This document shows, piece after piece, positions 1-47,239 of a stretch of DNA of 64,000 nt. The stretch spans positions 2,644 to 66,643 of the forward strand of contig CAZYBE010000007.1 in the NCBI GenBank assembly GCA_964645765.1, given 5' to 3'. How positions within the stretch are numbered: the stretch's first letter is position 1; each line of letters begins with the position of its first letter. This stretch comes from an uncultured Eubacteriales bacterium (GTDB lineage Bacteria > Acidobacteriota > Aminicenantia > Aminicenantales > Aminicenantaceae). Below the pieces are notes generated by a model. The model did not search any database. It was given only the letters and a program-made list of their open reading frames with translations, and was not told where the DNA came from. A program made the position numbers and the translations under genes.

Positions 1-151
1 GATAAACTGAAAGCCTGAATTTGACATCGTTTTTTTAAGTGTGCGGAAGGGATTCCCAAGACGCTTCTCCCGCTCAGCTTGCCGAGAAGCCAGAAGGGTT
101 ACAGTGCATTCATTCAAGATTTTCTGAATCTTGAGAAGAATTTTCCCTGGC

Positions 152-23090: not shown

Positions 23091-23092
23091 TT

Positions 23093-25975
23093 TTATGCTG
23101 CCGAAATTTTATTCGTTTTTTTCTTGTCCAGATCCTTTGGAATATATATGGTGAAGAGAGAGCCTTTTCCCCGTTCGCTTTCCACAGTGATCTGTCCTTC
23201 ATGCTCTTTAATGATGGCATAGCTGATGGAAAGGCCGAGGCCAGTCCCTTTCCCCAGTCCTTTGGTGGTAAAGAATGGGTCAAAGATATGTGGCAAGTGC
23301 TGGTCCTTGATCCCGGTTCCTGTGTCCTCAATTTTTATCATGGCCTGGTTTGAATTCTCGCTGAGCGAGATTCTCAGAGTCCCGCCGTTGGGCATGGCAT
23401 CGATGGCGTTGAGGATGATGTTGATGAAGACTTGTTGGAGCTGTTCTCCCTGTGCCCAGAGGGGCCGAAGCTTCTCAAGTTTCAACTCCAGATTGATATT
23501 CATCGTTTTCAGCTTGTATCTAATCAGGGAGACGATCTCCTGCAGGTTGTCCTTGAGGTCAACTTTATGGAAAGATGATTCTGAAGGATTTCGAGCAAAG
23601 TTGAGGAGGTTTTTGATGATGCTGGCCACTCTTTCAGTTTGGGCTTCAATCTTTTCCAGGATTTGGCCATGAGGAGATTTGGAGAGCTTCTTCTGAAGGA
23701 TCTGGACATAGCTTGAAATTCCGGTCAAGGGCGTATTGATTTCATGAGCAACACCAGCAGAGAGGAGACCGATGGAAGCAAGTTTCTCTGAAGTCAGCAG
23801 CTGCTGCTGGAGAGATATTTTTTCTGTTATTTCCTCAAAGACGACGACCGTCCCGTAAGGGTTCATTCTGTTATCGAGGAGTGGAGTCTTGGCGATGTCG
23901 AATATTTTTTTCTCATTGGGTGCTATATCCAGGGTGATTTCGCTCAAGAGGCGAAAATCCTGCTGGCTTTCAAGAGGAAAGAGGGCTGAGAAATTTTTCG
24001 CTCCCAAGACTTCCATCAGAGTTTTGTTCACGACGATTTCTTTTTTCAGAGAAAAAGTTTCCTCAAGCACCCGATTCCAGCCAATGATTCTTCCTTGCTG
24101 GTCAAGGACGGCGACTCCAACAGTCAGGCTTTCGATGATGTTCTCGCTGTAATCTTTGAGCCTTCCCAGTTCCATGGCCCTGATGCTGGCCTGGTCGTAG
24201 AGATAGGCGTTTTCAAGGGCTAACGCCACTGGGGAAGAAATGGTGGTGAGAAGCTCCCAATCTTCGCTGTTGAGAAACCTGTTATCAACTTTCTTGCCCA
24301 TGGCCAGACAGCCGATGATGTTCTCTTCGACTTTCAAAGGCAAGTAATGGAAATAGGTCGAGGAGGAAAGACTTTCAAAATTCTTCTGGAGTTCTTTTCG
24401 CTCGGCAAAAGAATAAGAGGAAAGAAACTCTTTTTCTTTCAGCTCTTGATAGAGAGAGTCGTCAAAAGTAATTTTGTCTTCGCTCGACGACGATTGCCCT
24501 CTGGATTTCAGGATGGAGAATGAATTTTTTTCAGCGTCCACTGGAAGGAGAAGGGCTATGCACTTAAGAGAGAGGGCGTTGGCAATCAATTCCAGGAGAG
24601 ATTGGGAGAGTTTCTGGAGATTTCTCTCTCGACTGAGTTCTTTGCTTATCGAAAGAAGAGTCTTTCGGTATTGATAAGTCCTTTTATAAAAAGCCCTGTC
24701 CAGGATGGACTGGAAAAGTTTTTTCAACGGGGTGAAAAGCGTTGCCCCCAGAATAATGGCCAGGATTCCTAAAAAGAAAGCGTTGAGCTTGTTTTCGAGT
24801 GAAATTTTTGTCTGGGAAGTGGCGATGAAATAGATGATGGCCAAGATCACAGAGGAGGAAACCAGGGTCACGGCCTTCTTGAGAAGGAGCTCAAAATCCA
24901 TCAGCCTGTGCCTGGAAATGGAGTAGGAGAAAGTCAGAGGAATGAGGGCCTGGAGGATGACGGTGAGTTCCGCTGCTCTGGAAGGAATATGATTGAAGAG
25001 GAAAGGAATGATGTAGAAAAGGGTGAAGGGAATGATGCCAAGGCCGAGACCGTAGGCAATCCACCTCAGCTGTTTTTTGACCATCAGGTTTGAAGGCATG
25101 ACCGTGCTGTGGAGGATGGTCAACAAGGTCGCGATGGAAAAGATGGCAAAGTGGAGAAGACCCAGCTTCTCCGATGTGTCATGCAAACCGAGCATGAGGA
25201 CATCACTTGAATTCCGGAACATAGGAAGATGGAAGGATATTTTTAGCAAGAGAAGGGCTAAGCCAGGAAGGTAAAGGAAGAAGATTGAAGACGGCTTGGT
25301 TTTTAAAAATATTTTTCTTTGAGGGAAGATAGTGAAGAAATGAAGGAGTAGAGGAGGGAAGACCAGAAAGGAGATGCTGTCAAGCCAGTAGAAAAGGCTA
25401 TCCAGCTTGTCGAGCCTTCCTGTGGAAGAGAAGACGTCAAAGGAGTAAAAAACCAAAGAGATGAAGTAGAAGAAAACGTAAGGCATGGTAAAGGGCTTCT
25501 TTGAATTGATGAAAACAATCAAGCCTATGACCAGCGTGGTTAAGCCGATGAAAGCCAGAAAGAAGTAGATGACATTGACCCGTTTCTGCGCCAGATAGAA
25601 GGAGGGCGGGATGAGCTCTCCTTCTCTGATAATTTGGTATCTGACTTTTTGATTCGGGCTTGAAGCTTGCCATAGATTCTTTGCCAACTCTATTTTGTTT
25701 TTGACGGGATTGTTGTTGATGGATAAGAGGACGGTTCCTTTCTTGATGCCGTTCAAATAGCCAGGGCTATTGACATCAACTTTAATTGCGGTCAAACCTT
25801 GGGGTCTTTCGTCCCAGATAACGCCATCTGTCGGCTCTGTCCAAGTCGCCTTTTTATAGACATTCAGTCCACCCAATAGGAGAAGGATGAGGACGAAAAG
25901 CATGGCCGTGGAAATTTTGATTTTCTCCAGGAAGTTCTTTCTCCCTTTTTCTGATAATCCAAAAAATTGAATCAT
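23093..25975 (-). CDS. Multi-domain sensor histidine kinase (PilS-like partner of the sigma-54 regulator)
   Basis: 960 aa. N-terminal periplasmic and polytopic membrane region, GAF/PAS-like domains, HisKA (HEINTPLTGI) and HATPase_c (GTGLGLSI). Confidence 0.8.
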   Translation of the reverse strand: MIQFFGLSEKGRKNFLEKIKISTAMLFVLILLLLGGLNVYKKATWTEPTDGVIWDERPQGLTAIKVDVNSPGYLNGIKKGTVLLSINNNPVKNKIELAKNLWQASSPNQKVRYQIIREGELIPPSFYLAQKRVNVIYFFLAFIGLTTLVIGLIVFINSKKPFTMPYVFFYFISLVFYSFDVFSSTGRLDKLDSLFYWLDSISFLVFPPLLLHFFTIFPQRKIFLKTKPSSIFFLYLPGLALLLLKISFHLPMFRNSSDVLMLGLHDTSEKLGLLHFAIFSIATLLTILHSTVMPSNLMVKKQLRWIAYGLGLGIIPFTLFYIIPFLFNHIPSRAAELTVILQALIPLTFSYSISRHRLMDFELLLKKAVTLVSSSVILAIIYFIATSQTKISLENKLNAFFLGILAIILGATLFTPLKKLFQSILDRAFYKRTYQYRKTLLSISKELSRERNLQKLSQSLLELIANALSLKCIALLLPVDAEKNSFSILKSRGQSSSSEDKITFDDSLYQELKEKEFLSSYSFAERKELQKNFESLSSSTYFHYLPLKVEENIIGCLAMGKKVDNRFLNSEDWELLTTISSPVALALENAYLYDQASIRAMELGRLKDYSENIIESLTVGVAVLDQQGRIIGWNRVLEETFSLKKEIVVNKTLMEVLGAKNFSALFPLESQQDFRLLSEITLDIAPNEKKIFDIAKTPLLDNRMNPYGTVVVFEEITEKISLQQQLLTSEKLASIGLLSAGVAHEINTPLTGISSYVQILQKKLSKSPHGQILEKIEAQTERVASIIKNLLNFARNPSESSFHKVDLKDNLQEIVSLIRYKLKTMNINLELKLEKLRPLWAQGEQLQQVFINIILNAIDAMPNGGTLRISLSENSNQAMIKIEDTGTGIKDQHLPHIFDPFFTTKGLGKGTGLGLSISYAIIKEHEGQITVESERGKGSLFTIYIPKDLDKKKTNKISAA

Positions 25976-28143: not shown

Positions 28144-29759
28144 ACAAGACAAAAAAAGAAGAACAAGAGAAAGCGTCTATCTCTGAAGAAGAGAAAACAA
28201 AAAAAATAGCAGCCCGGTACAACATTCCTTATGTTGACCTTTCAGCCCGCAGTTTGAGCCGGGAACTCGTCCAGTCCTTCCCCCCTGATTTTCTCTACCG
28301 CTCGAACTTCATTCCTTTTGAAGACAACGAGAATGTGCTGAAAATTGCCATCGCCGACCCTTCTGATATCGCTACCATCGACGCCATCGAATCTTATATT
28401 GGAAAGAAGGTGGAAGTCTATGCGGCCCCGTTGAGGGCTATCCATGAAGCGCTGCGAAAGAGCGAGACTGCGCTTCAGGTCCTCAAAGATGCAACAGAAG
28501 GATTCATCACCCAGGTTGTGGAGAAGGAAGGAGGCGAAGAGAAGGAAGTCATCTCGGTGGAGACGCTGGCTGACCAGGACGGCTCAATCATCAAGCTGGT
28601 GAACTCGATCATCTTCACCGCTGTCCAGAAAAGGGCCAGTGATATCCATATCGAATCCAAAGAAGAAGGCGTGATCATCAAATTCCGCATCGACGGTGTT
28701 CTGGGCGAAGCCATGGAGGCGATTAACAAGAAATTTCAGGCTTCGATTATCTCCAGAATCAAGGTCATGTCTGACCTTGATATTGCTGAGCGAAGAGTCC
28801 CTCAGGATGGAAGGTTCAGGCTGAAGATCAGGGATAAGACCATCGATTTTCGTATCTCGATCATGCCCTCCATCTACGGCGAGGATGCTGTCATCCGCAT
28901 CCTCGACAAAGAGATGATCACTGAGGCCATCTCGGAGTTGAGGCTGGATCTCCTCGGTTTTTCCGACGAAGTTCTGGCAAAGTTCAGAAGATATATCACC
29001 CAGCCCTACGGAATGGTGCTCGTAACCGGCCCGACAGGAAGCGGAAAGACGACCACCCTGTACGCCGCTTTGACCGAGATCAAATCTCCTGAGGATAAAA
29101 TCATCACCATCGAAGACCCTGTCGAATACCAGATCGAGGAAATAACCCAGATTCCTGTCAATGAGAAGAAAGGCCTGACCTTTGCCCGCGGCTTGCGCTC
29201 CATCTTGAGGCATGACCCGGACAAAATCATGGTGGGAGAGATCAGGGACCCGGAAACAGCCCAGATCGCCATTCAATCAGCCTTGACCGGACACCTTGTT
29301 TTCACCACTGTCCATGCCAACAACGTCTTCGATGTCATCGGGCGCTTCCTCCATATGCAGGTCGACCCTTACAGTTTCATCTCAGCTCTGAATTGTATCC
29401 TGGCTCAAAGGCTGGTCAGGGTCCTCTGCCCGAAATGCAAGAGCCCTGTCCATTATGGACCGGACCAATTGCGTGAGTCAGGGCTCGACCCGAAAAGATT
29501 CGCAGAAAAAACTTTCTATGAGGTTCGGGGGTGCGGCGACTGCTTCTACACCGGCTTCAAAGGGAGAACAGCCATTGCCGAGCTCCTCGAGCTTTCTGAC
29601 CCGATCCGGGTGATGATTCTGGAGAAAAAGCCCCTTTCCGAGGTGAAGAAGAGGGCCAAGAGTGAAGGCGTGGTTTTCTTGAGAGAGGTGGGGATGCAGA
29701 AAGTCTTAAAAGGCGTAACGAGCCTCAAAGAATTGAACAAAGTCACTTTTGTCGAGTAA
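28140..29759 (+). CDS. pilB: Type IV pilus assembly ATPase PilB (GspE family)
   Basis: 539 aa. N-terminal GspII_E domain, Walker A VTGPTGSGKTTTLYAAL, Asp/His boxes and a tetracysteine CPKC..CGDC zinc motif. Confidence 0.9.
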   Translation: MNKTKKEEQEKASISEEEKTKKIAARYNIPYVDLSARSLSRELVQSFPPDFLYRSNFIPFEDNENVLKIAIADPSDIATIDAIESYIGKKVEVYAAPLRAIHEALRKSETALQVLKDATEGFITQVVEKEGGEEKEVISVETLADQDGSIIKLVNSIIFTAVQKRASDIHIESKEEGVIIKFRIDGVLGEAMEAINKKFQASIISRIKVMSDLDIAERRVPQDGRFRLKIRDKTIDFRISIMPSIYGEDAVIRILDKEMITEAISELRLDLLGFSDEVLAKFRRYITQPYGMVLVTGPTGSGKTTTLYAALTEIKSPEDKIITIEDPVEYQIEEITQIPVNEKKGLTFARGLRSILRHDPDKIMVGEIRDPETAQIAIQSALTGHLVFTTVHANNVFDVIGRFLHMQVDPYSFISALNCILAQRLVRVLCPKCKSPVHYGPDQLRESGLDPKRFAEKTFYEVRGCGDCFYTGFKGRTAIAELLELSDPIRVMILEKKPLSEVKKRAKSEGVVFLREVGMQKVLKGVTSLKELNKVTFVE

Positions 29760-30702
29760 GAAAATGTCTTTGCTTCTGGAGCGAGTGAAAAATTATTTCA
29801 TCCAAGAACCTCTTCCCCACTCGGCTATTCAACTTGCTTCCTCTTACATCAGCGGCATTCGTGTTTCAGCTAAGGAAAAAAAGGTCAAGAGCTATTTTAT
29901 CCTTCCCCTGGAGAAAGGGGTGATCGAGCCCTCCTTCAACCAAAAGAATATCAAAGACCCTTCGCTTCTTGAAAGAAGAGTTAAAGAAGGGCTGGACAGG
30001 CTTCATCTTTCCGAGCGGCGCGTGGCTTGTCTCATTCCGGAGCTATCTCTCAAGGTCTTTGTTTTTTCCTTTGATTCTCTTCCTCCATCCCGTAAGGAAA
30101 GAGAGCAGCTCATCCGCTTCCGGGTGAAAAAGCAGCTTCCCTTGCTTCCTGATGATGCCCGCTTTTCTTTTGATGTCGTTCGCTCCTCGAATTCTCTGAG
30201 AGTTTTGGCTGCAGTCGCCCGCTCGGCTACTATCGGCGAATACGAAGATTTCTTCGCTCGCTTCAATCTAAAAGTCAGAACCCTTGGAATCCCCTCCTTA
30301 AGCCTGAGCCATTTGATGGCCAAGCACAGTGAAGAAGACTTTTTGCTGGTCAACATCGAAGAGGATTTTTTCAGCCTCCTCGCCATACTGGACTCTGGAG
30401 TTTCGCTCTACCGCTCGAAGTCTTTTATGGCCGAGTCTCAGAGAAATTTTTCGGAGCTTCAGAGAGTTGAGCATATCATTAAAGAAGTGGAGAATACTGT
30501 CAATTTCGTCGAGGACAGAGAGAAGAAGAGAGTCAGGTCTTTTTGGGTCCGTCTTGGGCTCTTGGAGAAAGCGACAGAGTCGGCCTCTCTCCTTCGAGAA
30601 AAATCCCCTTTTGCCCTGATGGAGATGGATGCCGCGAAAACTTCGGGGCTGGGTGAAAAAGAAAGGAAGATGTTGTCTCCTCTCATCGGACAAATTCTAT
30701 GA
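29749..30702 (+). CDS. pilM: PilM-like pilus assembly protein
   Basis: 317 aa. Position between pilB and the pilNOPQ genes, with translational coupling. Actin-like PilM is the expected gene here. TTG start at 29749, or ATG at 29764. Confidence 0.5.
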   Translation: MSSKKMSLLLERVKNYFIQEPLPHSAIQLASSYISGIRVSAKEKKVKSYFILPLEKGVIEPSFNQKNIKDPSLLERRVKEGLDRLHLSERRVACLIPELSLKVFVFSFDSLPPSRKEREQLIRFRVKKQLPLLPDDARFSFDVVRSSNSLRVLAAVARSATIGEYEDFFARFNLKVRTLGIPSLSLSHLMAKHSEEDFLLVNIEEDFFSLLAILDSGVSLYRSKSFMAESQRNFSELQRVEHIIKEVENTVNFVEDREKKRVRSFWVRLGLLEKATESASLLREKSPFALMEMDAAKTSGLGEKERKMLSPLIGQIL

Positions 30703-31262
30703 TGGCCGCTAAAAGACTAAGCTTGAATTTAGCCACATATCCCTTGCGGAACAGGAGATTCTTTTTTTTGCTCCTCTCTGTTATGGCCGCTACACTTCTC
30801 CTCATCAGCTATCTGGCCGCAAGAAATTATATTAAATATCGGAGCGAGGCTCAAAAGGTCAGAGCCTCCATCGACAACATCGACCAACTGATTATGGTTG
30901 CCGGAACTGAGGAAAAGAATTTTCGCCGGAAAGTCGAGGAGGCGGTGCGTCAAGATAAGAATAAAATCGATTTGGTTAACAGCATCATCTTGAGAAAAGT
31001 TTTTTCCTGGACAGAGCTTCTCTCCACTCTCGAAAACTCCCTTCCCGACTCAAGCTACATTCTTTCTCTGGCACCGACTCTCACTGAGGATTCAAGGCTG
31101 CAGTTGAGGTTGAGAGTCGTCTCGCAGGATTTGGATAAGCTTTTGGAGTTCTTGACCAAATTAAAAGCCTTAAAGTTCAGGATTAGAATAGAAGGAGAAA
31201 TGGAGAGCGAAAGAGGATTGCTCATTTCTGAGGTTTCTTTGAGCTATGAAAGAGGTATTTGA
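30699..31262 (+). CDS. pilN: PilN-like protein
   Basis: 187 aa with an N-terminal TM anchor followed by a coiled-coil. Synteny within pilMNOPQ. Confidence 0.5.
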   Translation: MMAAKRLSLNLATYPLRNRRFFFLLLSVMAATLLLISYLAARNYIKYRSEAQKVRASIDNIDQLIMVAGTEEKNFRRKVEEAVRQDKNKIDLVNSIILRKVFSWTELLSTLENSLPDSSYILSLAPTLTEDSRLQLRLRVVSQDLDKLLEFLTKLKALKFRIRIEGEMESERGLLISEVSLSYERGI

Positions 31263-31803
31263 TTTATTGGACAGACGGGAAAAGAGAATAACAATCCTTC
31301 TCTGCTCGCTGCTTGGAGTGGCCCTTATCTTCTTCTTGCTCGGCTCCCTGCCGCAGATAAGGCATTATTCCAAGCTGGCCTCTTCCCTCCGCTCCAAAGA
31401 GAAGAGTTACCAGACTGCCGGCCAGAAGACTTCGGAAAGAAGAGAGGAATGGCTGAGGTGGCAACAGGCTCAAAAAGACCTGGAGGATTTAAGAAAAAAA
31501 TATTTTTATGATAAGGACGTTCAGCCCAAGCTCCGGCTTGACCTGGAGCGAATCTTCAGTGAGGCTGGCGTTCGTGTTTCCTCGATAGAATTTACCTATT
31601 TTGAACTGAAGAAGGAAAAAACAAACAGAATCAACATCACCTTCAACCTGAGAAGCTCTTATCCATCCTTGAAAAAGTTCATCCATTTGGTCGAGAAATT
31701 TCCAAAATTTCTGGTTATAGAAAAAATCGATTTCCTGAGCAGCGAGAGTAGCCAGGAAGTCTTGGAGTTAAGGGTTATTTTGGCAGGCTATTATGAGAGC
31801 TAA
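31246..31803 (+). CDS. pilO: PilO-like protein
   Basis: 185 aa with an N-terminal TM anchor and a coiled-coil. Synteny. Confidence 0.5.
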   Translation: MKEVFDLLDRREKRITILLCSLLGVALIFFLLGSLPQIRHYSKLASSLRSKEKSYQTAGQKTSERREEWLRWQQAQKDLEDLRKKYFYDKDVQPKLRLDLERIFSEAGVRVSSIEFTYFELKKEKTNRINITFNLRSSYPSLKKFIHLVEKFPKFLVIEKIDFLSSESSQEVLELRVILAGYYES

Positions 31804-32275
31804 AACTCCGCTCGTTTGTCTTGCGCTCTTTCTTTTCGCCGCTTCTCTTTTGTGCGGGCAGGAAGAGACATCCAAGAAAAAAGATGTTGGGGAAGGAGAA
31901 GGGAAGAGCCTTATCCGGAAAGAGTTATTGTTGAAAGAGAAAAAAGGGCTTCCACTACCGCGACGAAACATCTTCTCCCCCCGAAGAACAGGATTGAGTC
32001 CGTCGGAGCCAAAAGGACCGGCCCTTCAAAAGAATCCAGGTACCGTTGAGCCGGAGCCTTCCCGCGCTTCTTTAAACCTGAGCTACATCGGATACATCGT
32101 TTCCGGGGAGAAGATCATTGCCCTGATTGTTCTTGAAGGGGATATTCTCTACGTGGAGAAGGGAGACATGATTCAAGAGGGAATCAGAATTGGAGAGATT
32201 ACGGCCTCGGAAATAGAAGTCATCGGCCCAGGCTCTGAAAAAAAGAAATTTATGATACAAGGAGACTCGGAATGA
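31793..32275 (+). CDS. pilP: PilP-like lipoprotein
   Basis: 160 aa. Lipobox (LLCGQ). Small periplasmic protein immediately upstream of the secretin gene. Confidence 0.45.
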   Translation: MRAKTPLVCLALFLFAASLLCGQEETSKKKDVGEGEGKSLIRKELLLKEKKGLPLPRRNIFSPRRTGLSPSEPKGPALQKNPGTVEPEPSRASLNLSYIGYIVSGEKIIALIVLEGDILYVEKGDMIQEGIRIGEITASEIEVIGPGSEKKKFMIQGDSE

Positions 32276-34422
32276 AAAAAGCAGTCCTTTTGGCGATAAT
32301 CGCTTTGATCGGCTGGGGATGCGCCACATTCAGCGCAAGTTATAAATTGGGGACCAAGGCTGCACTCAATAAAGATTGGGATAAGGCCATTCGCTATTAT
32401 GAAAGGGCTGTCCGGGATAACCCCGACAATCCTATTTACACGACATCTCTGCTAAGGGCCAAAGTTGCTGCCTCTTATTTTCACCTCAATAAAGCCCGGG
32501 AGCTCGCCTCTCGCCAGAAGATTGAGGAGGCGCGGGCTGAGTATGAAAAAACTCTCTCCTACGGCGTTTTGAACAAGTCTGTGGCCGATGAGGCGGAGGC
32601 TCTGGGCAAGGAGAAAGCCAAGGAAGAGATAGTGAAGGAAGTCAGGATCGAGCCTCCGGTCAAGCTTAAAGTCGACAAACAAAAGATCGAGCTGAGGTTC
32701 CCTGTCCAGGCTCCTCTCAAATCGATTTTTGAAGCCTTGGGAAAGCAAGCTCGAATAAATGTTCTCTTTGATGATCAATTCAGGGATATTCCCAATTTTA
32801 CCTTCAACCTCGCTGATGTGACTTTCGAGGAGGCTCTCAGTCACCTCTGCCTTTCTTCCAGGAATTTTTATGCTATTATCGATGAGAAGACGGTCATGAT
32901 TGCTCCTGACAATCCTCAGAAGAGAGTTCAGTATGAGCTGAATGTCATCAAGACCTTCTATCTCTCCAACGTCAACGCTGATGAGGTTCGTGTCAGCCTG
33001 CAGCAGATGCTCCGCAGCCAGTACAGGCAGCCCCAGGTCACTGTTGATAAGAATTTAAACTCGGTCACTATCAGAGATATTCCGGCTGTAGTCGAGCTGG
33101 CCGAGAAGATTCTCCGCTCCTGGGACAAGGCCAGAGGCGAGGTCTACATCGACCTGGAAATAATGGAAATCTCAAGAATTAGGGTGAGACAGATCGGTGT
33201 GGACCTGGCGCTGGCGACCCAGGCGGTTGGGTTGAAATACATCGGGCCGACGGCTCCCAGTGATAGCTGGTTCAACCTGAAGGGTATTGATTTTTCCAAA
33301 AAGGAATATTTTCAGATCACGCTTCCCACGGCTTATCTGCAGTTTCTGGAATCTGATTCAGACACCAGGATCATCGCCCAGCCCCGGCTTCGAGGAATTG
33401 AGGGTGAGGATATAACCTATCTGGTCGGAGATAAGGTCCCTGTTCCCAGAACGACTTTCTACCCTATCGCCGCCGGAGGCCAGGGCTCGCAACCGATGGT
33501 GAGCTACGATTACCAGGATGTGGGCATCGATGTCAAGATCAAGCCCAGGATACATTCTGAGAAGGAAGTGACTCTGGAGCTGGAGATAAAAATAAAGTCT
33601 TTGTCAGGAACAGGCGTAGCCGACATTCCCATCATCTCCACCAGAGAAGTGAAGAACATCATCAGGCTCAAGGACGGCGAGACAAACCTTCTGGCCGGGC
33701 TGTTAAGGGATGAAGAGAGGAAAACAAAGACCGGGATAGCCGCCCTGAAGGACATTCCTATCCTGGGAGGGCTTTTCTCGAGCACAGACCAGACCATCCA
33801 GCAGACAGATGTCATCCTGACCATTACTCCCCATATCGTCCGCTCGATTTCTCTCGGCGAGCAAGACCTGAAGCCCATCTGGGTTGGACCTGAGGGAGTG
33901 TCAACCGGTGAGAGGGTGAGCGAAGCCGTTTCCGAAGAGGCGTCTGCGGAGAGAAGGGCAAGGCAGAGGGCAGAGCAGGAAGAGACAGCGAGGAGAGAGG
34001 AAAGAGGCCAGAACCGCATTGCCCTCACTCCTTCCAATATTCCGGTTGCCCAGAACCAAGAATTCAGGGTCAATATCAACCTGGCCACCCAGGAGGAGAT
34101 TTCGTCTCTTTCTCTGAGCATAAGCTTTGATTCAAGGCTGGCAAAGTTAAAGGAAGTTGCAAAAGGCGGCCTGCTCGCTCAGCTCGGGGAAGAGGCGCCT
34201 TTCTTGAAGAGCATTGATAATTCTTCCGGCTCCTGCACCATCGGCTTTACCAGCCCTGCCACAGGCAAAGGGATTAGAGGCGTTGGAGTTTTAGCCACCC
34301 TCATCTTTCAAGCCCAGGAAAAAGGTGAGGGCCTGGTCTCAGTCACGGACTCTACGGCCAGCAGTCCATCAGGAAAACCTCTGGCCTTCGAATCCACCCC
34401 CTCTCGGCTCAACGTGAGATAA
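32272..34422 (+). CDS. pilQ: Type IV pilus secretin PilQ with N-terminal lipobox/TPR-like region and C-terminal cohesin-like domain
   Basis: 716 aa. Lipoprotein signal (LIGWGCA). Secretin core (GETNLLAGLLRDEERKTKTGIAALKDIPILGGLFS ... VILTITPHIV). A ~170-aa C-terminal extension resembles a cohesin domain. Confidence 0.85.
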   Translation: MKKAVLLAIIALIGWGCATFSASYKLGTKAALNKDWDKAIRYYERAVRDNPDNPIYTTSLLRAKVAASYFHLNKARELASRQKIEEARAEYEKTLSYGVLNKSVADEAEALGKEKAKEEIVKEVRIEPPVKLKVDKQKIELRFPVQAPLKSIFEALGKQARINVLFDDQFRDIPNFTFNLADVTFEEALSHLCLSSRNFYAIIDEKTVMIAPDNPQKRVQYELNVIKTFYLSNVNADEVRVSLQQMLRSQYRQPQVTVDKNLNSVTIRDIPAVVELAEKILRSWDKARGEVYIDLEIMEISRIRVRQIGVDLALATQAVGLKYIGPTAPSDSWFNLKGIDFSKKEYFQITLPTAYLQFLESDSDTRIIAQPRLRGIEGEDITYLVGDKVPVPRTTFYPIAAGGQGSQPMVSYDYQDVGIDVKIKPRIHSEKEVTLELEIKIKSLSGTGVADIPIISTREVKNIIRLKDGETNLLAGLLRDEERKTKTGIAALKDIPILGGLFSSTDQTIQQTDVILTITPHIVRSISLGEQDLKPIWVGPEGVSTGERVSEAVSEEASAERRARQRAEQEETARREERGQNRIALTPSNIPVAQNQEFRVNINLATQEEISSLSLSISFDSRLAKLKEVAKGGLLAQLGEEAPFLKSIDNSSGSCTIGFTSPATGKGIRGVGVLATLIFQAQEKGEGLVSVTDSTASSPSGKPLAFESTPSRLNVR

Positions 34423-36257: not shown

Positions 36258-36806
36258 GTGAGTAAAAAAATAATCGCTTCTTCTTCAAACAATCAAAAGG
36301 CCAGATTTTCATCGGCTGAAAAAGGCTTGACCCTGGTCGAGATTGTGGTCGTTATGGCCATCATGGGCGTTTTGGCCATGGTCTTATACTCCAACTTCAG
36401 AAGCACCACGGTGTTAAGAGAGCTGGAGGGCTCGGCAAGGGACATTCAGACAACTTTGCAGAGAGCCAGATTCCAGGCTGTCAGAATGCGTATGAATCAC
36501 CGAGTGACCTTCGTCGAGCAAAATAACACCTGGTATTTCAATATAGAGAGAGAAGATAGCCCGGGTGGCTGGAACGCTATACCAGGTTCCATAAAAAAAG
36601 CCATACCCACGAAATTCAACGTGACCGTGAACTTTCCCAATCAGACGGTCATGTTCTCGCCCCTCGGCTTCATCTCGAACTTTAATTCCTCTCAAAACGG
36701 CATCAGTCTTCAGTCTGCTGAGCTGCTGCGCAATAAACAGCCTGACCTGAGAGTGATCAATATTTATGCCGGAGGGGCTATTAAATACGCCAAAACAGCC
36801 AGTTAG
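36258..36806 (+). CDS. FimT/GspH-like minor (pseudo)pilin
   Basis: 182 aa. Prepilin motif KG|LTLVEIVVVMAIMGVLA after a 22-aa leader. FimT-like ARDIQTTLQRARFQAVR segment. Confidence 0.7.
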   Translation: MSKKIIASSSNNQKARFSSAEKGLTLVEIVVVMAIMGVLAMVLYSNFRSTTVLRELEGSARDIQTTLQRARFQAVRMRMNHRVTFVEQNNTWYFNIEREDSPGGWNAIPGSIKKAIPTKFNVTVNFPNQTVMFSPLGFISNFNSSQNGISLQSAELLRNKQPDLRVINIYAGGAIKYAKTAS

Positions 36807-36817
36807 GGAGTGAGGAG

Positions 36818-37309
36818 ATGAGTCAAAGAATAAAATTTGGATTTTTGCGGTTTCAAAATAATAAGAGGTCTTTGAAAAAGACTAAATCCAAAGGCACAGA
36901 AGAGAAGGGCTTTTCCTTGATAGAGGTTCTAATCGGAATTGCTCTTATCGGAATTGGCTTGTTAAGCCTGGCCCAGATGTTCTATTTGGGGGTGATGAAC
37001 AATACCAAGTCTGATAGGTTGACTCAGGCTACTTTTTTGGCCCAGCAGCAGATTGATTTTCTGCGCGGCCTCAACGCACAAGAGCTGAATGACCTGGCCG
37101 CCAACAGGATTGACGAAAATATAGATGTCAACGGCGATGGAGTCATCGATGCCAGAAGAATAACCCAGATTGTGCCTGCTGGATTTAGCTACAATGTGAC
37201 TGTTCTTGTTTTCTCAAGAGAGCGGAAAGATGATGACATCAATAACCTCGCTGCTGACCCAGTCAGATACCGTGTCCGAGCAGCCATCAATACAATTATC
37301 AGCAGGTGA
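36818..37309 (+). CDS. pilV: PilV-like minor pilin
   Basis: 163 aa. Prepilin motif KG|FSLIEVLIGIALIGIGLL after an unusually long (~31 aa) basic leader. Confidence 0.65.
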   Translation: MSQRIKFGFLRFQNNKRSLKKTKSKGTEEKGFSLIEVLIGIALIGIGLLSLAQMFYLGVMNNTKSDRLTQATFLAQQQIDFLRGLNAQELNDLAANRIDENIDVNGDGVIDARRITQIVPAGFSYNVTVLVFSRERKDDDINNLAADPVRYRVRAAINTIISR

Positions 37310-38478
37310 TAAATATGAACAAGCCTAAAAAACAGAAAAACGGGTTTACTATAGTGGAACTTTTAGCGGGGAGCGTCATCATGCTGGCCATCATCCTGAT
37401 GACTCTGACTCTTTATTCAAGGAGCAACAAGTTATCGGTTGACCAGCAGCAGCTTTCCGATGTTCAGCATGAGATTCGTTTTGCCATGTATTATATTTCT
37501 AGGGATATCAAGAACGCGGGAGCCGGCTTGCCCGACCAGTTTGCCGGGTATTTTCTTCAGGGAGTCAACAATGACGAGAATCAGATAAGCGGCGATCCCG
37601 ATAAGCCTGGCTATCAGTTTCAACCCGACAAGTTGACGATACTCGGGAACTCAGACCCATTAAGGCTTCTCATCCAGAGCTACAATCCAGGCTCAGGGCT
37701 TGTTCAACTGGAGGCAGCCCAATTGAGCCTCTATCCTTATAACGCCCACTCCTACCCGACTGACGCTCTTGGCTATATCAACAGACTCATCCTCATTCTT
37801 CCCAACCCGGAGTTGAACACCCTAAACGGGGAGCTGGGCCAAATCACGAACGTCGATTTCGGCACAAACCAGGTCTCATTCAATCGAATCGATGTGCCTC
37901 TGCCCAATAACTTGCAGCCAGGCGGAAATTCAGACGCCTACAATAAGGGCACTGTGAATTTTATCGAGCTCAGAACATACTGGCTGGATATCAACGGCAG
38001 TACCACCGGTCTTGTTGCCGGACAGGATGGCTATCTTGGAGTGCCCGGTGTTTTCTATCTCTCCCAGTATAATACCCTGACCAACGGCTTTGAGCACATG
38101 GCTCTGGCTCAGGGGGTTGAGGATTTCCAGGTTCAGTACCTTGGCGACCTCGACCATGACGGGAATCTGGACGACAATAACACCGATGGAGTCATCAATA
38201 ATCAAGACTACCAGAACTGGGATGAGACCAACTGGACAAATAACCCTGGAGTGGTCTCTGGAATTCGCAGCTTAAGATTCTGGGTTCTGGGAAAAACAGA
38301 GAGAGCCTTTACCAGCATTTCAGGGCTCACTCCGGACCAGATGAGGAATGTCTTCGGCAAGCCGAGCTTGGCTGATTCCCCTGCCGGGTCTCAAGCAGAC
38401 AAGCACCGAAGGTTTCTGCTGGAGTCAACAGTCAACATAAGGAATATGTCTTTGAGCCTCTACAATCTGGGAAGATAA
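37306..38478 (+). CDS. pilW: PilW-like minor pilin
   Basis: 390 aa. Prepilin motif NG|FTIVELLAGSVIM. Size and position fit PilW. Confidence 0.65.
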   Translation: MINMNKPKKQKNGFTIVELLAGSVIMLAIILMTLTLYSRSNKLSVDQQQLSDVQHEIRFAMYYISRDIKNAGAGLPDQFAGYFLQGVNNDENQISGDPDKPGYQFQPDKLTILGNSDPLRLLIQSYNPGSGLVQLEAAQLSLYPYNAHSYPTDALGYINRLILILPNPELNTLNGELGQITNVDFGTNQVSFNRIDVPLPNNLQPGGNSDAYNKGTVNFIELRTYWLDINGSTTGLVAGQDGYLGVPGVFYLSQYNTLTNGFEHMALAQGVEDFQVQYLGDLDHDGNLDDNNTDGVINNQDYQNWDETNWTNNPGVVSGIRSLRFWVLGKTERAFTSISGLTPDQMRNVFGKPSLADSPAGSQADKHRRFLLESTVNIRNMSLSLYNLGR

Positions 38479-38482
38479 GGAG

Positions 38483-39076
38483 TTGGCGATGAGAAAAAAG
38501 ATGGGATTCGATGGAAAAAAGGAGAAGGGGTCGGCTCTGGTCGTTGTGCTCCTTGTTCTTGCCTTTTTACAGATTGTCGGAATTGTGCTTTTAACGGTGA
38601 CGAGCAGTGGACCGAAAGTCGCTGAGAACGTGCGGGCACAGCAGCAGGCATCCAATGCGGCTGAGGCAGGTTTTGATGCTGTCTGGGCAAGCATTGAGGA
38701 GCTTTTTGCCCTGGGCACATGGGTCAACTTTGACGGACATTATTTCGTTGAGCCGACAGGCATCGACAATCCTCAGTCGAGCAATTACTTCAGAAAGTTA
38801 ACCGATGCAGAAATTTTGAGCCTGATCGACCCTGACGGAGACAAGAATCCTAATTTAAACAATGTCTATTGCTTTCGCCAGTCTTTCATTCAAAAGACTG
38901 ACGGCTCAGCGGATACCCGATTTTCCTTCACTGCCTTTTTTATCGATGACGAGGCCGGAGGCGGTGTGTCCGAGCCTGAGGATGCTCTTCTAGTCTGCAT
39001 CGGGGTTGTCGAGATGGGGAAAAACATCACAACGACAAGGATTGAAGTTGAGGTTGTCCTTGAATCAGGGACATGA
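38483..39076 (+). CDS. pilX: PilX-like minor pilin
   Basis: 197 aa. N-terminal hydrophobic helix (GSALVVVLLVLAFLQIVGIVLL). Position between pilW and pilY1. Confidence 0.5.
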   Translation: MAMRKKMGFDGKKEKGSALVVVLLVLAFLQIVGIVLLTVTSSGPKVAENVRAQQQASNAAEAGFDAVWASIEELFALGTWVNFDGHYFVEPTGIDNPQSSNYFRKLTDAEILSLIDPDGDKNPNLNNVYCFRQSFIQKTDGSADTRFSFTAFFIDDEAGGGVSEPEDALLVCIGVVEMGKNITTTRIEVEVVLESGT

Positions 39077-39098
39077 GCTATAGATAAAGAGGTGAAAG

Positions 39099-42000
39099 AT
39101 GAGTAAAAAAACAAAAACTTTTATGCTGTCCATTCCTTTAATTATAATTCTCTTCATCGCTATCTGCGTCTTCAGCCCGAGATTCTGGGCTCAAGAGACG
39201 TGCACTGAATACACCTCCACCTTCACCGAGGATTTTCACAACGACGCCTACAAGGACAAAACATACTCCTCTGTATCCTTCTGGCCGCCCGGACCAGTGA
39301 CTCTTGGCTGGCTTGGCGGACAATTAGCAATCTCCCAGCCGGCGGGGATGGGAGCCAAGATTCTGGTCTGTGATAGCGGTGACTTTACCGGCGACGGCTT
39401 GCCTGATTTAATAGGCTATGATATCAGCTTGCATACCGAATTGGACAAAACGAAAGGAAGATTAGTCCTTGTCAGGAATAAATTTGTGGATGCTAATAAA
39501 GATGGAGCCGACGATGATGGAGTCATTTTTCAAATCGATACAACAAAAATTTTCGACACGAATATAACAGGCGAGGTCGCTTCCATTACTGTCGGAGATT
39601 ATAACGGCGACGGACTTCTCGATTTTTTCTTTTGCATCAACAATCGAGACGATGCCGTTTTTAGTAGTACTTTTCGTGCTGTCATGTATATTAATTACGG
39701 GTCGGCTACTGACCCGAAATTCAAAGTGTACACCCAATCCCCCAACCTTAATTTCACAACGAAGTTCAAGAATGCCTTTATCTATATCCGCTGGTTGGGT
39801 GACCATATGTCTTCTGTGGACATCGACAAGGACGGAGATAAAGACATCCTCTTTGTCAGCCAGGATAAAATCTTTGTGGTCAGAAACCCGGGTAAAAGTA
39901 ATTGGAGCCTCAACAATTTTACAATCTCTGAGCTCAGTTATAACCAGCGTCCGGGCTTTCCCACCGGCGCACTCATGGGCGGTTCGGCCATCGAAGCCGC
40001 TGACTTCGACCGTGACGGAAACCTGGACGTCGTGGTCGGCTCAGTCGAGTGGGTTGACCATCTTGTTTATTATTCGAATGACGGCACAGGAAACTTTACC
40101 CGCTATGTCATTCCCATTACCGACAGCAGCTGTATCGGCACGACCGGCATTACTGCTGGAGACTTCAATAACGACGGCCTAATGGACCTCATGTGCTCGA
40201 ACGACCAATGGCGCACTCTCAATCTGGCCAGGCTTTACATGTACAAGAATAAAGGGAATATTGGAGGAGGCGGCATTCCTGTCAATTTCGAGTTTAAGTG
40301 CTGGAACGACTGTAACCCGATCAATCCCCCCATATACGATGATGACGTTATCGTTGCCGTTGATGTTGACAGTGACGGTGATATGGACATAATCACCGCA
40401 GATGCCAACGACTCTGGCAACTATTTCATGTTCACCAACGGATTATCTAACGTTTACACCCTGTTTGGCGAAGCCCGCTCGACCAACATCAGGGCCGGAC
40501 TGGATGAGAATCTCTATGCCGTGACCAAGGCCAAGATTAAAAACCTTCGCCAGGGAATCAAGGGGGGGTCTAGTTCCGGGCTTAAGATCACCTTCTACCT
40601 GTCGAATAACGGCTTGGATTGGGAGCTTTTCGCCACTTACGAAGGCTCTAATATCCATGATTACTCAGACCTTCCCGTCCACAAATTCGAGCACTTCGGC
40701 TCGAAGCTTTTCTGGAAGGCGGTGATGAGCGCTCCCGAAGACCCGATGTCAGACTTCGACAGTGCTTCCTATGATTCCCCTTGCATTTCCTCGATTGAGT
40801 TTGAGTGTATTCATGTCGAGCGGAAAGAGTATTCTCGGACATCAGCGGCGGCAACATATGTCGATTATAGAGGAAGCACCAGGAACTGTGTCATCGGCAG
40901 CTCATTCTACTACCCTGGCTGGCAGGGTCATTTAAGGGCCTACGATGTCTCCGCGATGACTCCTGAGAATTCGCCGTATTCTGTGCTGCGGACGGTCACC
41001 CAGTCAAACTTCTCTTCTCCGACAGGGAGAGAGATCCTGGTCGAGGGAGTTGAGATTCTATGGGATGCCGGGCAGCTTTTGAATCTCCGCTCGGCTGACG
41101 ATAGAAAAATCTACACCGCTATTCCTTCAGGGGAAAGATTGACGAGAGTCGATTTCACTGAGAGCTATGTCGATACTTTAGGGCCGATCATAAAGGATGT
41201 GAACAACGATAATGCGGCGCTGATCAACTTTGTCCGGGGCGCAGGCCGCAACTGGAAGTTGGGGGACAGCAACCACTCCACTCCGGTGGTCGTCGGCCCT
41301 CCGGAAGAGAATGCTTCGATGATGGGGAGCGGATACCAGAAGTTCAAGGATGACTTGAAGGAGCGGCACAAAGTCCTTTACCTCGGCGCCAACGACGGAA
41401 TGCTTCACTGCTTTGATATCGTCACTGGTGAAGAATTGTGGGCCTTCATACCCTACAACCTGCTGCCCAAATTGAGGAACATGTGCGACATTATTCCCGA
41501 TACTGGAGAGAGAACGTACATCAGGGATACTTATGTCGACGGCAGCCCGACTGCTGCCGATGTTTATGTCGACGCCACTGGAGACGGTATAAAAGAATGG
41601 ATTACTATTCTTGTCTGCGGTCAAGCTCAGGGTAAAGGAAGCACACTTGGCGGTGGATTGAACTATTATTTTGCTCTTGATGTCACCGACCCCAATATCC
41701 CCAAGCCTCTCTGGGAGTTTAAAGATAGCGCGATGGGTGAGACCTGGTCAGTTCCAGAGATCGGCAAAGTCCTCAAGGGAGGCAACATCACCTGGGCGGG
41801 CTTTGTCGGCTCAGGCTACGATAACGACAGCGACCATGTTGTCGGCAATCGATTCTATGTTGTTGACCTGGAGACCGGCAGCTCCTTCTGGAGTTTTACC
41901 GATTCTGGAGTCGATACCAGGACAAAACACGGCTTCACCTGGGATATTCAGAATGCCTTTGTGAGCTCTCCCTCCATAATGGACGTTGACCAGGATGGCC

Positions 42001-42716: not shown

Positions 42717-42843
42717 GAATGTCTTCTTCGTTGCCCATTCTAGGCCGTTTTTTTTGCCAAAGCAAAGAGTCGTCAAAAATCAAGATTAAAAGTCTGGGTT
42801 GTGCTTGAACGAGGGATGCGAGTTATAGTAAAAGAGGTAAAAA

Positions 42844-46462: not shown

Positions 46463-47239
46463 TCAGTAAGTCAGCCCCCGGAACAGTCCGAGATAAGCCG
46501 TGATCAGCTCTTTTCCCCAGACAAGGGAGACAAAAGCCGAGGGCGCTAAAAAGGTTCCGAAGGGAAGAGAGTACTGGAAGCTTTTTTTTCTGAAGATGAT
46601 GAAGAAAACGCCGACTATCGCCCCGGCGAAAGAGGCGATAATCAGGGTTAAAAAAGCCTGCTTCCAGCCAAGATAAGCGCCTATCATCAGCATCAAAGTC
46701 ACATCGCCCATTCCCAGACCCTCTTTTTTTCTTAAGAAATAATAGGCGGCGTAGATGAAAAGCAGGAATCCCGCTCCGGCCACTGCCCCGACCAGAGCTT
46801 GAGTCAGATTTAAATCTTTGCGGAAAAAGGAGTAGATGACGGCCAGAACAAGCCCTGGCAGGGTTATCTCATCGGGCAAAACCTGGTGGCCATAATCGAT
46901 GAAGGCCAGGACGACGAGTGCGCTGGAGAAGAGGCAGGAGGCAAAGAAGAAGAAACTCAAGGAATGATGAGCATAGAGGAGAATAAAGCTCGAGGGGGTT
47001 AAGAATTCGACCAGCGGATAAGTGAAGGATATTCTTTCCCGGCAATAGCGGCACCTTCCTCGCAGGACCAGGAAAGAGATAAGGGGAATGTTGTCATAGA
47101 ACTTTATCCTCTGCCTGCAGCGAGGGCAGGAGGATGGAGGCTTGATGATGCTCATTCCCAGCGGAAGCCTGTAGATCACGACATTGAGGAAACTTCCCCA
47201 GGCAAGTCCAAACAGGATGATGAAGACTATCTCTTCCAT
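46463..47239 (-). CDS. pilD: Prepilin peptidase PilD (A24 family)
   Basis: 258 aa. N-terminal zinc-ribbon CPRCRQ..CRYC and polytopic membrane peptidase domain. Convergent with pilY1. Confidence 0.85.
   Translation of the reverse strand: MEEIVFIILFGLAWGSFLNVVIYRLPLGMSIIKPPSSCPRCRQRIKFYDNIPLISFLVLRGRCRYCRERISFTYPLVEFLTPSSFILLYAHHSLSFFFFASCLFSSALVVLAFIDYGHQVLPDEITLPGLVLAVIYSFFRKDLNLTQALVGAVAGAGFLLFIYAAYYFLRKKEGLGMGDVTLMLMIGAYLGWKQAFLTLIIASFAGAIVGVFFIIFRKKSFQYSLPFGTFLAPSAFVSLVWGKELITAYLGLFRGLTY

Follow-up and report, generated by a model that had tools for sequence, protein, structure and literature searches.

Secretins assemble as 12-15-mers and normally need separate accessory proteins: pilotins, S-domain partners, or peptidoglycan-binding rings of the AMIN or TsaP type. 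PilQ is not a lipoprotein and needs a separate TPR pilotin, and many PilQ proteins, though not all, carry one or more AMIN domains. To our knowledge, every characterised cohesin acts outside the cell. Pilotins are lipoprotein chaperones and the S-domain is the element of the secretin that they bind (PMC10499894); in RcpA, the last four residues are bound in the TPR groove of the TPR-like pilotin TadD (PMC10499894), and Tgl, PilF and PilW are superhelices of about six TPRs (PMC10653833). Some secretins carry a lipid anchor themselves: BfpB is a lipoprotein secretin (PMC12531336), and HxcQ is described, in the part of PMC12475490 that cites Viarre et al. 2009, as self-piloted through its lipid anchor.

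Here we describe, in a 64,000-nucleotide stretch of Aminicenantes DNA (the window), a secretin in which one polypeptide apparently brings its own lipid anchor together with a TPR module and a cohesin. The Acidobacteriota, to which it belongs, are an abundant and poorly studied phylum.

Results

Table 1. Features of the secretin and of its neighbouring genes, with positions in the window.
Feature	Position	Strand	Basis
TPR-secretin-cohesin protein, whole gene	32272..34422 (stop codon 34420-34422)	+	ORF list, translation, Pfam
Signal peptide with a putative SPase II lipobox (residues 1-17, MKKAVLLAIIALIGWGC; Cys17 is the last residue)	32272..32322	+	Cys invariance, lipoboxes of divergent species
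TPR-like helical module (residues 22-112)	32335..32607	+	Pfam TPR_2, AF2 helices, profile search
Lys/Glu-rich disordered linker (residues 113-135)	32608..32676	+	AF2 block-mean pLDDT 40-44 over 111-130, no secondary structure
N0-like periplasmic domain (residues 139-212)	32686..32907	+	AF2 alpha/beta pattern; PF16344 FecR_C (precomputed) in homologues; aligns to the N-terminal region of PilQ from V. cholerae (6w6m)
Secretin_N (N3-like) domain (residues 215-288)	32914..33135	+	Pfam PF03958
Secretin beta-barrel core (residues 290-524)	33139..33843	+	Pfam PF00263; aligns to GspD, RcpA, pIV and PilQ chains up to ~525
Conserved post-barrel tail (residues 525-545), invariant D532, P535, W537	33844..33906	+	Alignment columns
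Arg/Glu-rich linker (residues 546-580), helix predicted at 555-576	33907..34011	+	Composition, conservation, AF2 (low confidence)
C-terminal cohesin domain (residues 581-716)	34012..34419	+	
GspF/PilC-like	26935-28143	+	Pfam, NCBIfam
MshEN-GspE/PilB-like ATPase	28140-29759	+	Pfam, NCBIfam
PilM/N/O/P-position small genes (four)	29749-30702, 30699-31262, 31246-31803, 31793-32275	+	Position; Pfam, NCBIfam
Minor-pilin block downstream of secretin: GspH/FimT-, PilV-, PilW-, PilX-like and two PilY1-like (about 1,200 aa, FG-GAP repeats)	36258..46446	+	Pfam, NCBIfam
Prepilin peptidase (PilD-like)	46463..47239	-	Pfam A24_N_bact and Peptidase_A24

The ORF is real, as judged from the ORF list and its translation, and encodes a 716-aa protein whose domains follow the order signal peptide, TPR-like module, N0-like domain, Secretin_N, secretin core, linker and cohesin (Table 1). 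Pfam Secretin_N was matched at residues 227-288 (E 1e-9, 39.0 bits against 28.2) and Pfam Secretin at residues 359-524 (E 3e-35, 121.7 bits against a gathering score of 27.5). With a barrel domain and at least one Secretin_N domain above the gathering score, and with an alignment to 19 solved secretins, the protein belongs to the secretin superfamily, in agreement with the secretin core named in a preliminary description of this DNA. No NCBIfam secretin model matched the 716-aa protein at its cutoff; GspD (TIGR02517) scored 143.4 bits against 351.35 and PilQ (TIGR02515) 99.2 bits against 284.35. The core is nearer in sequence to solved GspD than to PilQ (best solved match 6i1y, 72 bits), and a Pfam search at E<=1 gave no AMIN domain in the secretin. 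The earlier designation as PilQ is weakened on these three counts, PilQ cutoff, AMIN domain and core; the genomic context is pilMNOP-like, with PilV/W/X/Y1 genes. Global confidence in the full-length AF2 model was low (pTM 0.34).

The upstream genes, co-oriented with the secretin, occur in the same order in the Aminicenantes chromosome CP070825.1. Only the third of the four genes in PilM/N/O/P position matches PilO/GspM, and does so weakly, and the protein in the PilM position has no Pfam or NCBIfam match.

The TPR-secretin-cohesin architecture was present in the genomes of 41 Aminicenantes species and in those Terriglobales/Acidobacteriia homologues that were listed, of which 7,073 have E<=1e-10; some have been automatically named 'cohesin domain-containing protein' by NCBI. 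The cohesin is at the extreme C-terminus of every full-length homologue (116/116 in Aminicenantes, 120/120 in Terriglobales) and within one ORF in 39 of the 41 Aminicenantes species loci. Judged from these sequences, the architecture is not peculiar to the window and is conserved in at least two Acidobacteriota classes. Because the fusion of secretin and cohesin is common to two classes, we consider it ancient. The GC content is 0.515 in the secretin gene, 0.528 in its C-terminal part and 0.469 in the window; recent horizontal acquisition of the C-terminal domain was considered and rejected, since the GC shift is mild and the fusion is shared between the classes. A full-text literature search returned no paper on a secretin-cohesin fusion, and such names as this combination has come from automated annotation alone.

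The N-terminal sequence has a K/R n-region, an h-region and Cys17. This Cys is invariant in the 116 full-length Aminicenantes homologues and is found also in 41 related species loci, and the residues that follow it differ among homologues (A, T, V, S), leaving the Cys as the sole constant feature at that position. The strict PROSITE lipobox pattern fails on the window protein (G-W-G-C, with W at -2) and is passed by 13 of the 116 homologues, while divergent Aminicenantes species have canonical lipoboxes, among them LSGC, VSSC, YIGC and LGGC. Of the lipoprotein signal proposed earlier, a lipobox-type Cys is present, and we treat the lipobox as putative. Terriglobales relatives have ordinary signal peptides, mostly without the lipobox Cys, so the lipid anchor is presumably not essential to the architecture; the lipobox Cys is, as far as sequence can indicate, restricted to the Aminicenantes clade.

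Behind the lipobox lie the TPR-like helices that had been described there. The module, about 90 aa with five helices, consists of one canonical TPR (residues 23-53; Pfam TPR_2, 28.6 bits against a cutoff of 27) and two TPR-like helical hairpins, with AF2 placing helices at 22-32, 36-49, 54-80, 84-96 and 101-112 (block-mean pLDDT 81-90). Its profile matched consensus TPR, HOP, RPAP3 and SGTA in the PDB, and 3-TPR domains weakly. None of the solved pilotins PilF, PilW and TadD was among the 60 PDB profile matches listed, and a specific kinship to pilotins was rejected on this basis. The notion of a fused pilotin like Tgl is weakened, as the module is far smaller than Tgl or PilF and those 60 matches hold no pilotin. 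NCBIfam also gave a weak match, far under cutoff (E 6e-6), to the N-terminal end of TraC, a Myxococcus lipoprotein. Mean identity of the module to the query across homologues was 0.58, and Terriglobales relatives keep the module though the lipobox is mostly absent, which points to a conserved TPR role independent of the lipid anchor.

The linker at residues 546-580 is rich in Arg and Glu, as had been noted (23% and 29%, against 6% and 8% in the whole protein). It is the most variable segment (mean identity to the query 0.40), and in the divergent homologue P0269 it is Pro/Ala/Gln-rich instead. The domain that follows is a cohesin: Pfam Cohesin (PF00963) was matched at residues 597-695 (E 1.4e-9; 38.7 bits, cutoff 24.1) and is present, as a precomputed assignment, in 119 of the 120 closest homologues, and the domain has the nine-stranded flattened beta-sandwich (jelly-roll) of the cohesin fold. 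The cohesin-like pattern reported earlier is borne out by these results, and the analysis pointed neither to a low-complexity C-terminus without a cohesin fold nor to an ordinary signal peptide. In the homologue alignment the cohesin is gap-free with a mean identity to the query of 0.53, like that of the TPR module and above that of the linker, which indicates purifying selection on the cohesin. Its best-conserved part within each clade is the beta5-beta6 hairpin (residues 643-661), which differs between clades; this pattern would fit co-evolution with a partner and makes the hairpin a possible interface. A Cys193-Cys655 disulfide joining N0 to the cohesin was rejected as an obligatory feature, as homologues in which Cys655 has been lost still retain Cys193.

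When the last 171 aa by themselves were used as query, a word-indexed search matched one fragment, and an exhaustive profile search was used instead. Related cohesins were found in surface or scaffoldin-type proteins, with dockerins also in 54 of 150 representatives, and the closest relatives outside secretins belong to proteins that bear T9SS sorting tails or dockerins. Pfam Dockerin was absent from the 41 scanned window proteins, and a custom dockerin HMM, for which the 54 of 150 cohesin representatives served as positive control, found no full dockerin in 3,061 ORFs from the window and 42 related loci; the preliminary description had suggested looking for dockerin-bearing proteins in the genome, and neither set yielded one. 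The HMM gave half-model matches only (8-15 bits), to one Ca loop in the window's PilV-like minor pilin and to its counterparts in four other loci, and we take these for Ca sites of the usual pilin kind, not for dockerins. A regular expression for Ca-loops matched, within the window, the PilW-like ORF only.

When aligned to the query, solved chains of PilQ stop at residue about 523-525, and those of GspD run about 60 residues further, as the S-domain. Because the extension of the window protein starts at this S-domain position of T2SS secretins, a periplasmic location of the cohesin would, by analogy with solved secretins, be more likely than a surface location. As the characterised cohesins known to us all act outside the cell, a periplasmic cohesin would be unprecedented. 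In solved secretins, the S-domain position lies on the periplasmic side, where lipoprotein pilotins bind to it (PMC10499894).

Discussion

We put at about even the chances that this protein is a self-contained liposecretin of a type IV filament machine, with a periplasmic ring of cohesin docking modules for some partner. The 716-aa protein would be the outer-membrane secretin of an Aminicenantes machine of the type IV filament class, either a type IV pilus or a system like type II secretion, with three accessory modules built into the single secretin polypeptide. Lipidation of Cys17 would bring the secretin to the outer membrane, at its inner leaflet, much as in the self-piloting HxcQ. Beside the lipid anchor, the TPR module, with its fold of about three hairpins, may present a protein-protein interaction surface. 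Past the barrel, at the S-domain position, a charged and probably flexible linker leads to the cohesin domain; since secretins form 12-15-mers, there would be a peripheral ring of 12-15 cohesins on the periplasmic side, just below the outer membrane. These could act as docking modules, recruiting a partner or bridging neighbouring subunits or TPR modules. A bolder version, which we regard as improbable, is that here, for the first time on an envelope machine of a diderm, cohesins form a docking ring, which captures one particular partner at the pore of the pilus or secretion system and couples cellulosome-type assembly to a type IV filament machine across the Acidobacteriota; candidate partners would be Ca2+-loop elements of the adjacent PilV-/PilW-like pilins, or dockerin-bearing enzymes or adhesins encoded elsewhere.

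The shared position with the S-domain would also suit a cohesin that is a purely structural staple, packing on neighbouring protomers or on its own TPR module and so stabilising the multimer like an S-domain, with no external partner, a reading that we think unlikely. The TPR and C-terminal modules do lie in one chain, as a comparison with the RcpA C-terminus in the TadD TPR groove would require, and the conserved post-barrel tail with D532, P535 and W537 could be such a staple. However, the linker varies from 35 to >80 residues and is disordered or weakly helical, which would be unusual for a rigid staple, and its composition is wholly different between clades, yet the cohesin is kept.

Distinctly unlikely, in our view, is that the cohesin-fold domain is an envelope anchor that takes the place of PilQ's AMIN domains and fastens the secretin to the cell wall by binding peptidoglycan or some other glycan of the envelope. 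The AMIN domains of PilQ bind peptidoglycan (PMC10653833) and are absent from the window secretin, and the presumed site of the domain, under the outer membrane and at the end of a flexible linker, would allow contact with the wall. The best sequence and structure matches of the domain are, however, cohesins and not carbohydrate-binding modules, and the conserved hairpin residues differ between clades, which would be unexpected for a conserved ligand like peptidoglycan. The cohesin beta-sandwich does resemble carbohydrate-binding modules, but we know of no glycan-binding cohesin. The preliminary description proposed that the domain might tether partners on the cell surface. On that model the cohesins would lie outside, around the mouth of the pilus pore, as a cellulosome-like anchor for dockerin-bearing extracellular proteins, which seems quite improbable to us: the domain is a bona fide cohesin with relatives in surface and scaffoldin-type proteins, over a third of the representatives having dockerins, and the linkers are long and flexible, but the extension sits at a periplasm-facing position, neither the window nor the 42 related loci yielded a dockerin, and we know of no route for a secretin C-terminus across the outer membrane.

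If the cohesin of this secretin is periplasmic, cohesin biology would be extended beyond extracellular scaffolds, and if it recruits a defined partner, it would represent a new way to decorate or anchor a secretin. The protein is compact and confidently modelled domain by domain, and homologues occur in many Terriglobales genomes; identification of a cultivable carrier would make these predictions directly testable.

Among described systems, GspD/PulD share with this protein the Secretin_N domain, the secretin core and a C-terminal extension that starts at the same position after the barrel. Their S-domain, a helical pilotin-binding segment, spans about 60 aa, whereas the extension here is 191 aa long, the last 136 aa forming a cohesin beta-sandwich; in further contrast to GspD/PulD, the minor pilin and PilY1 genes of the window are of the type IV pilus type. 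With PilQ of P. aeruginosa, M. xanthus, N. meningitidis and V. cholerae, the secretin appears to share its operon position, as it follows four small genes placed like pilMNOP and has PilD and PilV/W/X/Y1-like genes in its neighbourhood, and its residues 128-523, spanning N0, N3 and the secretin domain, align to V. cholerae PilQ (6w6m); PilQ chains stop directly past the barrel, whereas the window secretin continues and has no AMIN domains. The liposecretins HxcQ (P. aeruginosa) and BfpB have, as is predicted here, an N-terminal lipoprotein-type signal with a Cys on the secretin itself, and we know of none with a TPR module behind the anchor or a C-terminal cohesin. The TPR lipoprotein pilotins PilF, PilW, Tgl and TadD are separate proteins, whereas the TPR module described here lies in cis within the secretin. 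About six TPRs make up PilF, PilW and Tgl, against a module of ~90 aa with one canonical TPR and without detectable specific similarity to them. Cohesin modules, whether cellulosomal (type I/II) or non-cellulosomal (Archaeoglobus fulgidus 2xdh), are 9-18% identical to the secretin's domain, which here belongs to an outer-membrane secretin in a diderm and is probably on the periplasmic side.

Results

The reading frame at 32272..34422 (+) is open throughout and encodes a 716-aa product (ORF list, translation), in which Pfam made four matches above curated cutoffs. The preliminary description had proposed a lipobox, TPR-like helices, a secretin core, an Arg/Glu-rich linker and a C-terminal cohesin-like domain, and each element was found in its place, the domains by Pfam and AlphaFold2 (AF2) and the linker by composition; the C-terminal domain, thought to span ~150 aa, is 136 aa long. 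That observation is confirmed, and its interpretation is supported in part. The linker at residues 546-580, GERVSEAVSEEASAERRARQRAEQEETARREERGQ, contains 23% Arg and 29% Glu, versus 6% and 8% in the whole protein.

Features of the 716-aa secretin (residues) and of its locus (nucleotides); L004, L006, L012 and L023 are other Aminicenantes loci
Feature	Position	Strand	Basis or placement
TPR_2	23-53		Pfam, 28.6 bits vs cutoff 27
Disordered linker	113-135		Full-length AF2 model
N0-like domain	139-212		
Secretin_N domain	215-288		
Secretin_N	227-288		Pfam, above cutoff
Secretin barrel	290-524		
Secretin	359-524		Pfam, E 3e-35
Cohesin PF00963	597-695		Pfam, E 1.4e-9, 38.7 bits vs cutoff 24.1
PDZ-GAF-PAS histidine kinase and sigma-54-dependent response regulator (PilS/PilR-like pair)	21705..25975	-	Upstream, divergent
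GspF/PilC-like gene, then MshEN-GspE/PilB-like ATPase			Upstream of secretin; Pfam, NCBIfam
Four small genes in PilM/N/O/P positions			Upstream of secretin
PilM-, PilN-, PilP-position genes	29749..30702, 30699..31262, 31793..32275	+	
TilS			After secretin
GspH/FimT-, PilV-, PilW-, PilX-like pilins, two PilY1-like proteins, then PilD			Downstream of TilS
Minor-pilin/PilY1 block	36258..46446		Between TilS and PilD
PilV-like minor pilin with one dockerin/EF-hand-like Ca loop, IDVNGDGVIDARRITQ	36818..37309	+	
PilV-like counterparts	L012 7794-8300, L023 3156-3626, L006 7169-7666, L004 7340-7843		
PilW-like minor pilin, 390 aa	37306..38478	+	
Two tandem PilY1-like proteins, ~1,200 aa each	39099..42716, 42844..46446	+	

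That the C-terminal domain is a real cohesin, as had been suggested, is supported by a predicted structure as well as by Pfam. An AlphaFold2 model of residues 575-716, made with 26 diverse homologues, is confident and all-beta (pLDDT 92.4, pTM 0.85), and all 50 Foldseek matches listed from the PDB are cohesin or cohesin-like modules. The top match among these is 2xdh, a non-cellulosomal cohesin of Archaeoglobus fulgidus (E 4e-11), and type I cohesins among the leading matches reach query-normalised TM-scores of 0.80-0.85. Against PDB sequences the cohesin profile retrieved cohesins only, and weakly (E 0.13-0.28), and the domain therefore represents a divergent cohesin subfamily. It is gap-free across 116 homologues, with a mean identity to the query of 0.53 (TPR module 0.58, secretin core 0.78, linker 0.40); judged by this alignment, the domain is under constraint.

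The N-terminus, MKKAVLLAIIALIGWGC, combines a basic n-region with a hydrophobic h-region, followed by Cys17, which is invariant in the full-length homologues of the first search (116/116), most frequently within F-W-G-C or L-W-G-C. A strict PROSITE-type lipobox does not admit W at -2 and thus rejects the window protein and most relatives, accepting only 13 of the 116; textbook lipoboxes (LSGC, VSSC, YIGC, LGGC, LCGC) occur in more divergent species representatives. The residues after Cys17 vary (A, T, V, S), and the Cys is therefore the sole constant feature there. We regard the Aminicenantes N-terminus as a probable lipoprotein signal. Beyond it, the full-length AF2 model (overall pLDDT 70, pTM 0.34) predicts helices at 22-32, 36-49, 54-80, 84-96 and 101-112 with block-mean pLDDT of 81-90. 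In a profile search with residues 17-128, the first repeat gives strong matches to consensus TPR proteins, and the entire module aligns weakly to 3-TPR domains in the PDB, such as those of RPAP3 and HOP; solved pilotins are absent from the 60 profile matches listed.

The best 120 homologues, at 57-96% identity and 698-723 aa save a few shortened entries, include 119 with precomputed PF00963, and those with a named source are Candidatus Aminicenantes MAGs. A peptide pattern specific to the family, scanned against GTDB species genomes, yielded 41 loci, all Aminicenantes or Acidobacteriota where a taxon is recorded, and in 39 the cohesin ends a ~710-890-codon ORF containing the signal-Cys-TPR start. 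Synteny is kept in CP070825.1, a complete Aminicenantes chromosome of 4.43 Mb. An exhaustive cohesin profile search returned 3,929 cluster representatives at E<=1e-3; within the top 150, a secretin core occurs only in the Aminicenantes type, some fragments and P0269, a divergent 824-aa homologue of the Terriglobales clade. Everything scoring >=76 bits per domain is a confirmed secretin fusion or a short fragment (~70-250 aa), and the best non-secretin proteins, at <=66 bits, carry several cohesins plus T9SS sorting tails or dockerins. Searching with P0269 recovered 7,073 proteins at E<=1e-10 and showed the TPR-Secretin_N-Secretin-Cohesin architecture to be abundant in Terriglobales and Acidobacteriia; among the best 120, PF00963 is precomputed in 118, and all have a C-terminal cohesin according to our own HMM. 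NCBI labels some of them "cohesin domain-containing protein", "secretin N-terminal domain-containing protein" or "type II and III secretion system protein", and the Aminicenantes copies "hypothetical protein". The fusion is thus present in two or more classes of Acidobacteriota, and automated annotation already shows it. Full-text literature searches turned up no description of it; annotation pipelines have caught the architecture and, as far as we could search, nobody has studied it. One Terriglobales contig (L043, 12443-13332) presents it in a different genetic context, with no pilMNOP-like genes before it and two small prepilin-type (N_methyl) genes directly after.

Terriglobales homologues carry ordinary signal peptides (e.g. 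...LWA/DKAG, ...ARA/DR); 116 of 120 lack a lipobox-like Cys and 74 of 120 any Cys. The lipid anchor would therefore be a trait of the Aminicenantes clade, and the TPR, secretin and cohesin parts are ancestral. The N-terminus had been likened to a fused, Tgl-like pilotin: TPR-like helices do follow the Cys, but the limitation of the anchor to Aminicenantes weakens the strict form of that claim. The linker of P0269, the one Terriglobales-clade homologue read for this feature, is long and Pro/Ala/Gln-rich, with no Arg/Glu helix. Gly, Pro and Asp, which are structural, make up most of the cohesin positions invariant in both clades. No cohesin stretch is better conserved inside each clade than the beta5-beta6 hairpin (643-661; PFLKNIDNSSGxCTIGFSS in Aminicenantes), yet it differs between them, a pattern compatible with an interface co-evolving with a partner. 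The dockerin-binding sheet of classical cohesins includes strands 5 and 6.

Terriglobales homologues are mostly Cys-free. In Aminicenantes homologues, Cys193 of the N0-like domain is invariant in a 33-sequence alignment (A2) and Cys655 of cohesin strand 6 is kept in 96%; an obligatory disulfide between them is unlikely, since Cys193 persists where Cys655 is lost.

Among solved structures, T2SS GspD is nearest to the core in sequence (72 bits), followed by RcpA, phage pIV and PilQ (43 bits and below). The NCBIfam secretin models all stayed under their cutoffs (GspD 143/351 bits, PilQ 99/284); gene context makes the name PilQ reasonable, but family thresholds do not establish it. The surrounding genes form a type IV filament cluster (Pfam, NCBIfam) whose ATPase scores are near-tied (GspE 527 bits, PilB 526 bits). 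Weak PilO/GspM matches occur only in the third of the four small genes, and the PilM-, PilN- and PilP-position genes have no Pfam or NCBIfam match; their products may be highly divergent alignment-complex components. Actin-like PilM, normally easy to detect, is missing at its position. In CP070825.1 (L001) the kinase/response-regulator placement upstream is repeated, and an asparagine synthase gene replaces the minor-pilin/PilY1 block, which is therefore a variable insertion. Both PilY1-like proteins combine N-terminal FG-GAP/FG-GAP_3 repeats with a C-terminal PilY1 beta-propeller. A prepilin-motif regex matched the PilV-like and PilW-like ORFs only; the window yielded no major-pilin gene, and the major pilin is presumably encoded elsewhere. 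Our domain scans covered part of the window ORFs, and a retraction ATPase within the window is therefore possible.

Pfam found no Dockerin in 41 window proteins. Applied to 3,061 ORFs from the window and 42 loci, a custom HMM, built from 13 dockerins accompanying related cohesins and matching 54 of 150 representatives as a positive control, detected no full dockerin. Its only matches there were weak (E 0.002-0.14, half of the model) and fell on the single Ca loop of the PilV-like minor pilin, D-V-N-G-D-G-V-I-D...RRITQ, conserved in the window and four other Aminicenantes loci, where the counterparts lie ~3 kb downstream of the secretin. The PilW-like protein carries tandem overlapping DxDxDG-type loops, DLDHDGNLDDNNTDGVINNQD, within its PilW domain, with no Pfam Dockerin even at E<=10. 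The likeliest explanation of these loops is that they are ordinary pilin Ca sites; we keep them as a lead only.

Discussion

Alignments to solved secretins end at query residue ~523-525, about where solved PilQ chains themselves end (6w6m 569/571, 4av2 737/745, 3jc8 894/901), and T2SS GspD chains run ~60 residues further; what follows here, residues 526-716, is therefore an extension placed where the S-domain would be. Pilotins have their anchor in the outer membrane's periplasmic leaflet. Lipoprotein pilotins are bound by S-domains at the C-terminal end of secretins, and in RcpA the four terminal residues bind in the groove of TadD, a TPR-like pilotin (PMC10499894). By analogy, a channel of 12-15 protomers would be ringed by their cohesins on its periplasmic side.

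The most likely reading, to which we give about even odds, is a self-contained, probably lipid-anchored secretin whose subunits would line the periplasmic side, at the S-domain position, with a ring of cohesin docking modules. The clade-specific hairpin is compatible with such docking; the dockerin search of the window and 42 loci yielded no full dockerin and only the pilin loops. That the cohesin is instead an internal staple seems unlikely to us. Still less likely is an envelope or peptidoglycan anchor in place of AMIN, a domain that Pfam did not detect in the 716-aa secretin. The surface tether first proposed, least probable of all, has a genuine cohesin to build on and runs against the S-domain position, periplasmic by analogy, which disfavours the idea and does not disprove it.

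PilQ chains stop right after the barrel, whereas the 716-aa secretin continues as residues 526-716; T2SS GspD has ~60 residues past the barrel, at the position that residues 526-716 occupy here.
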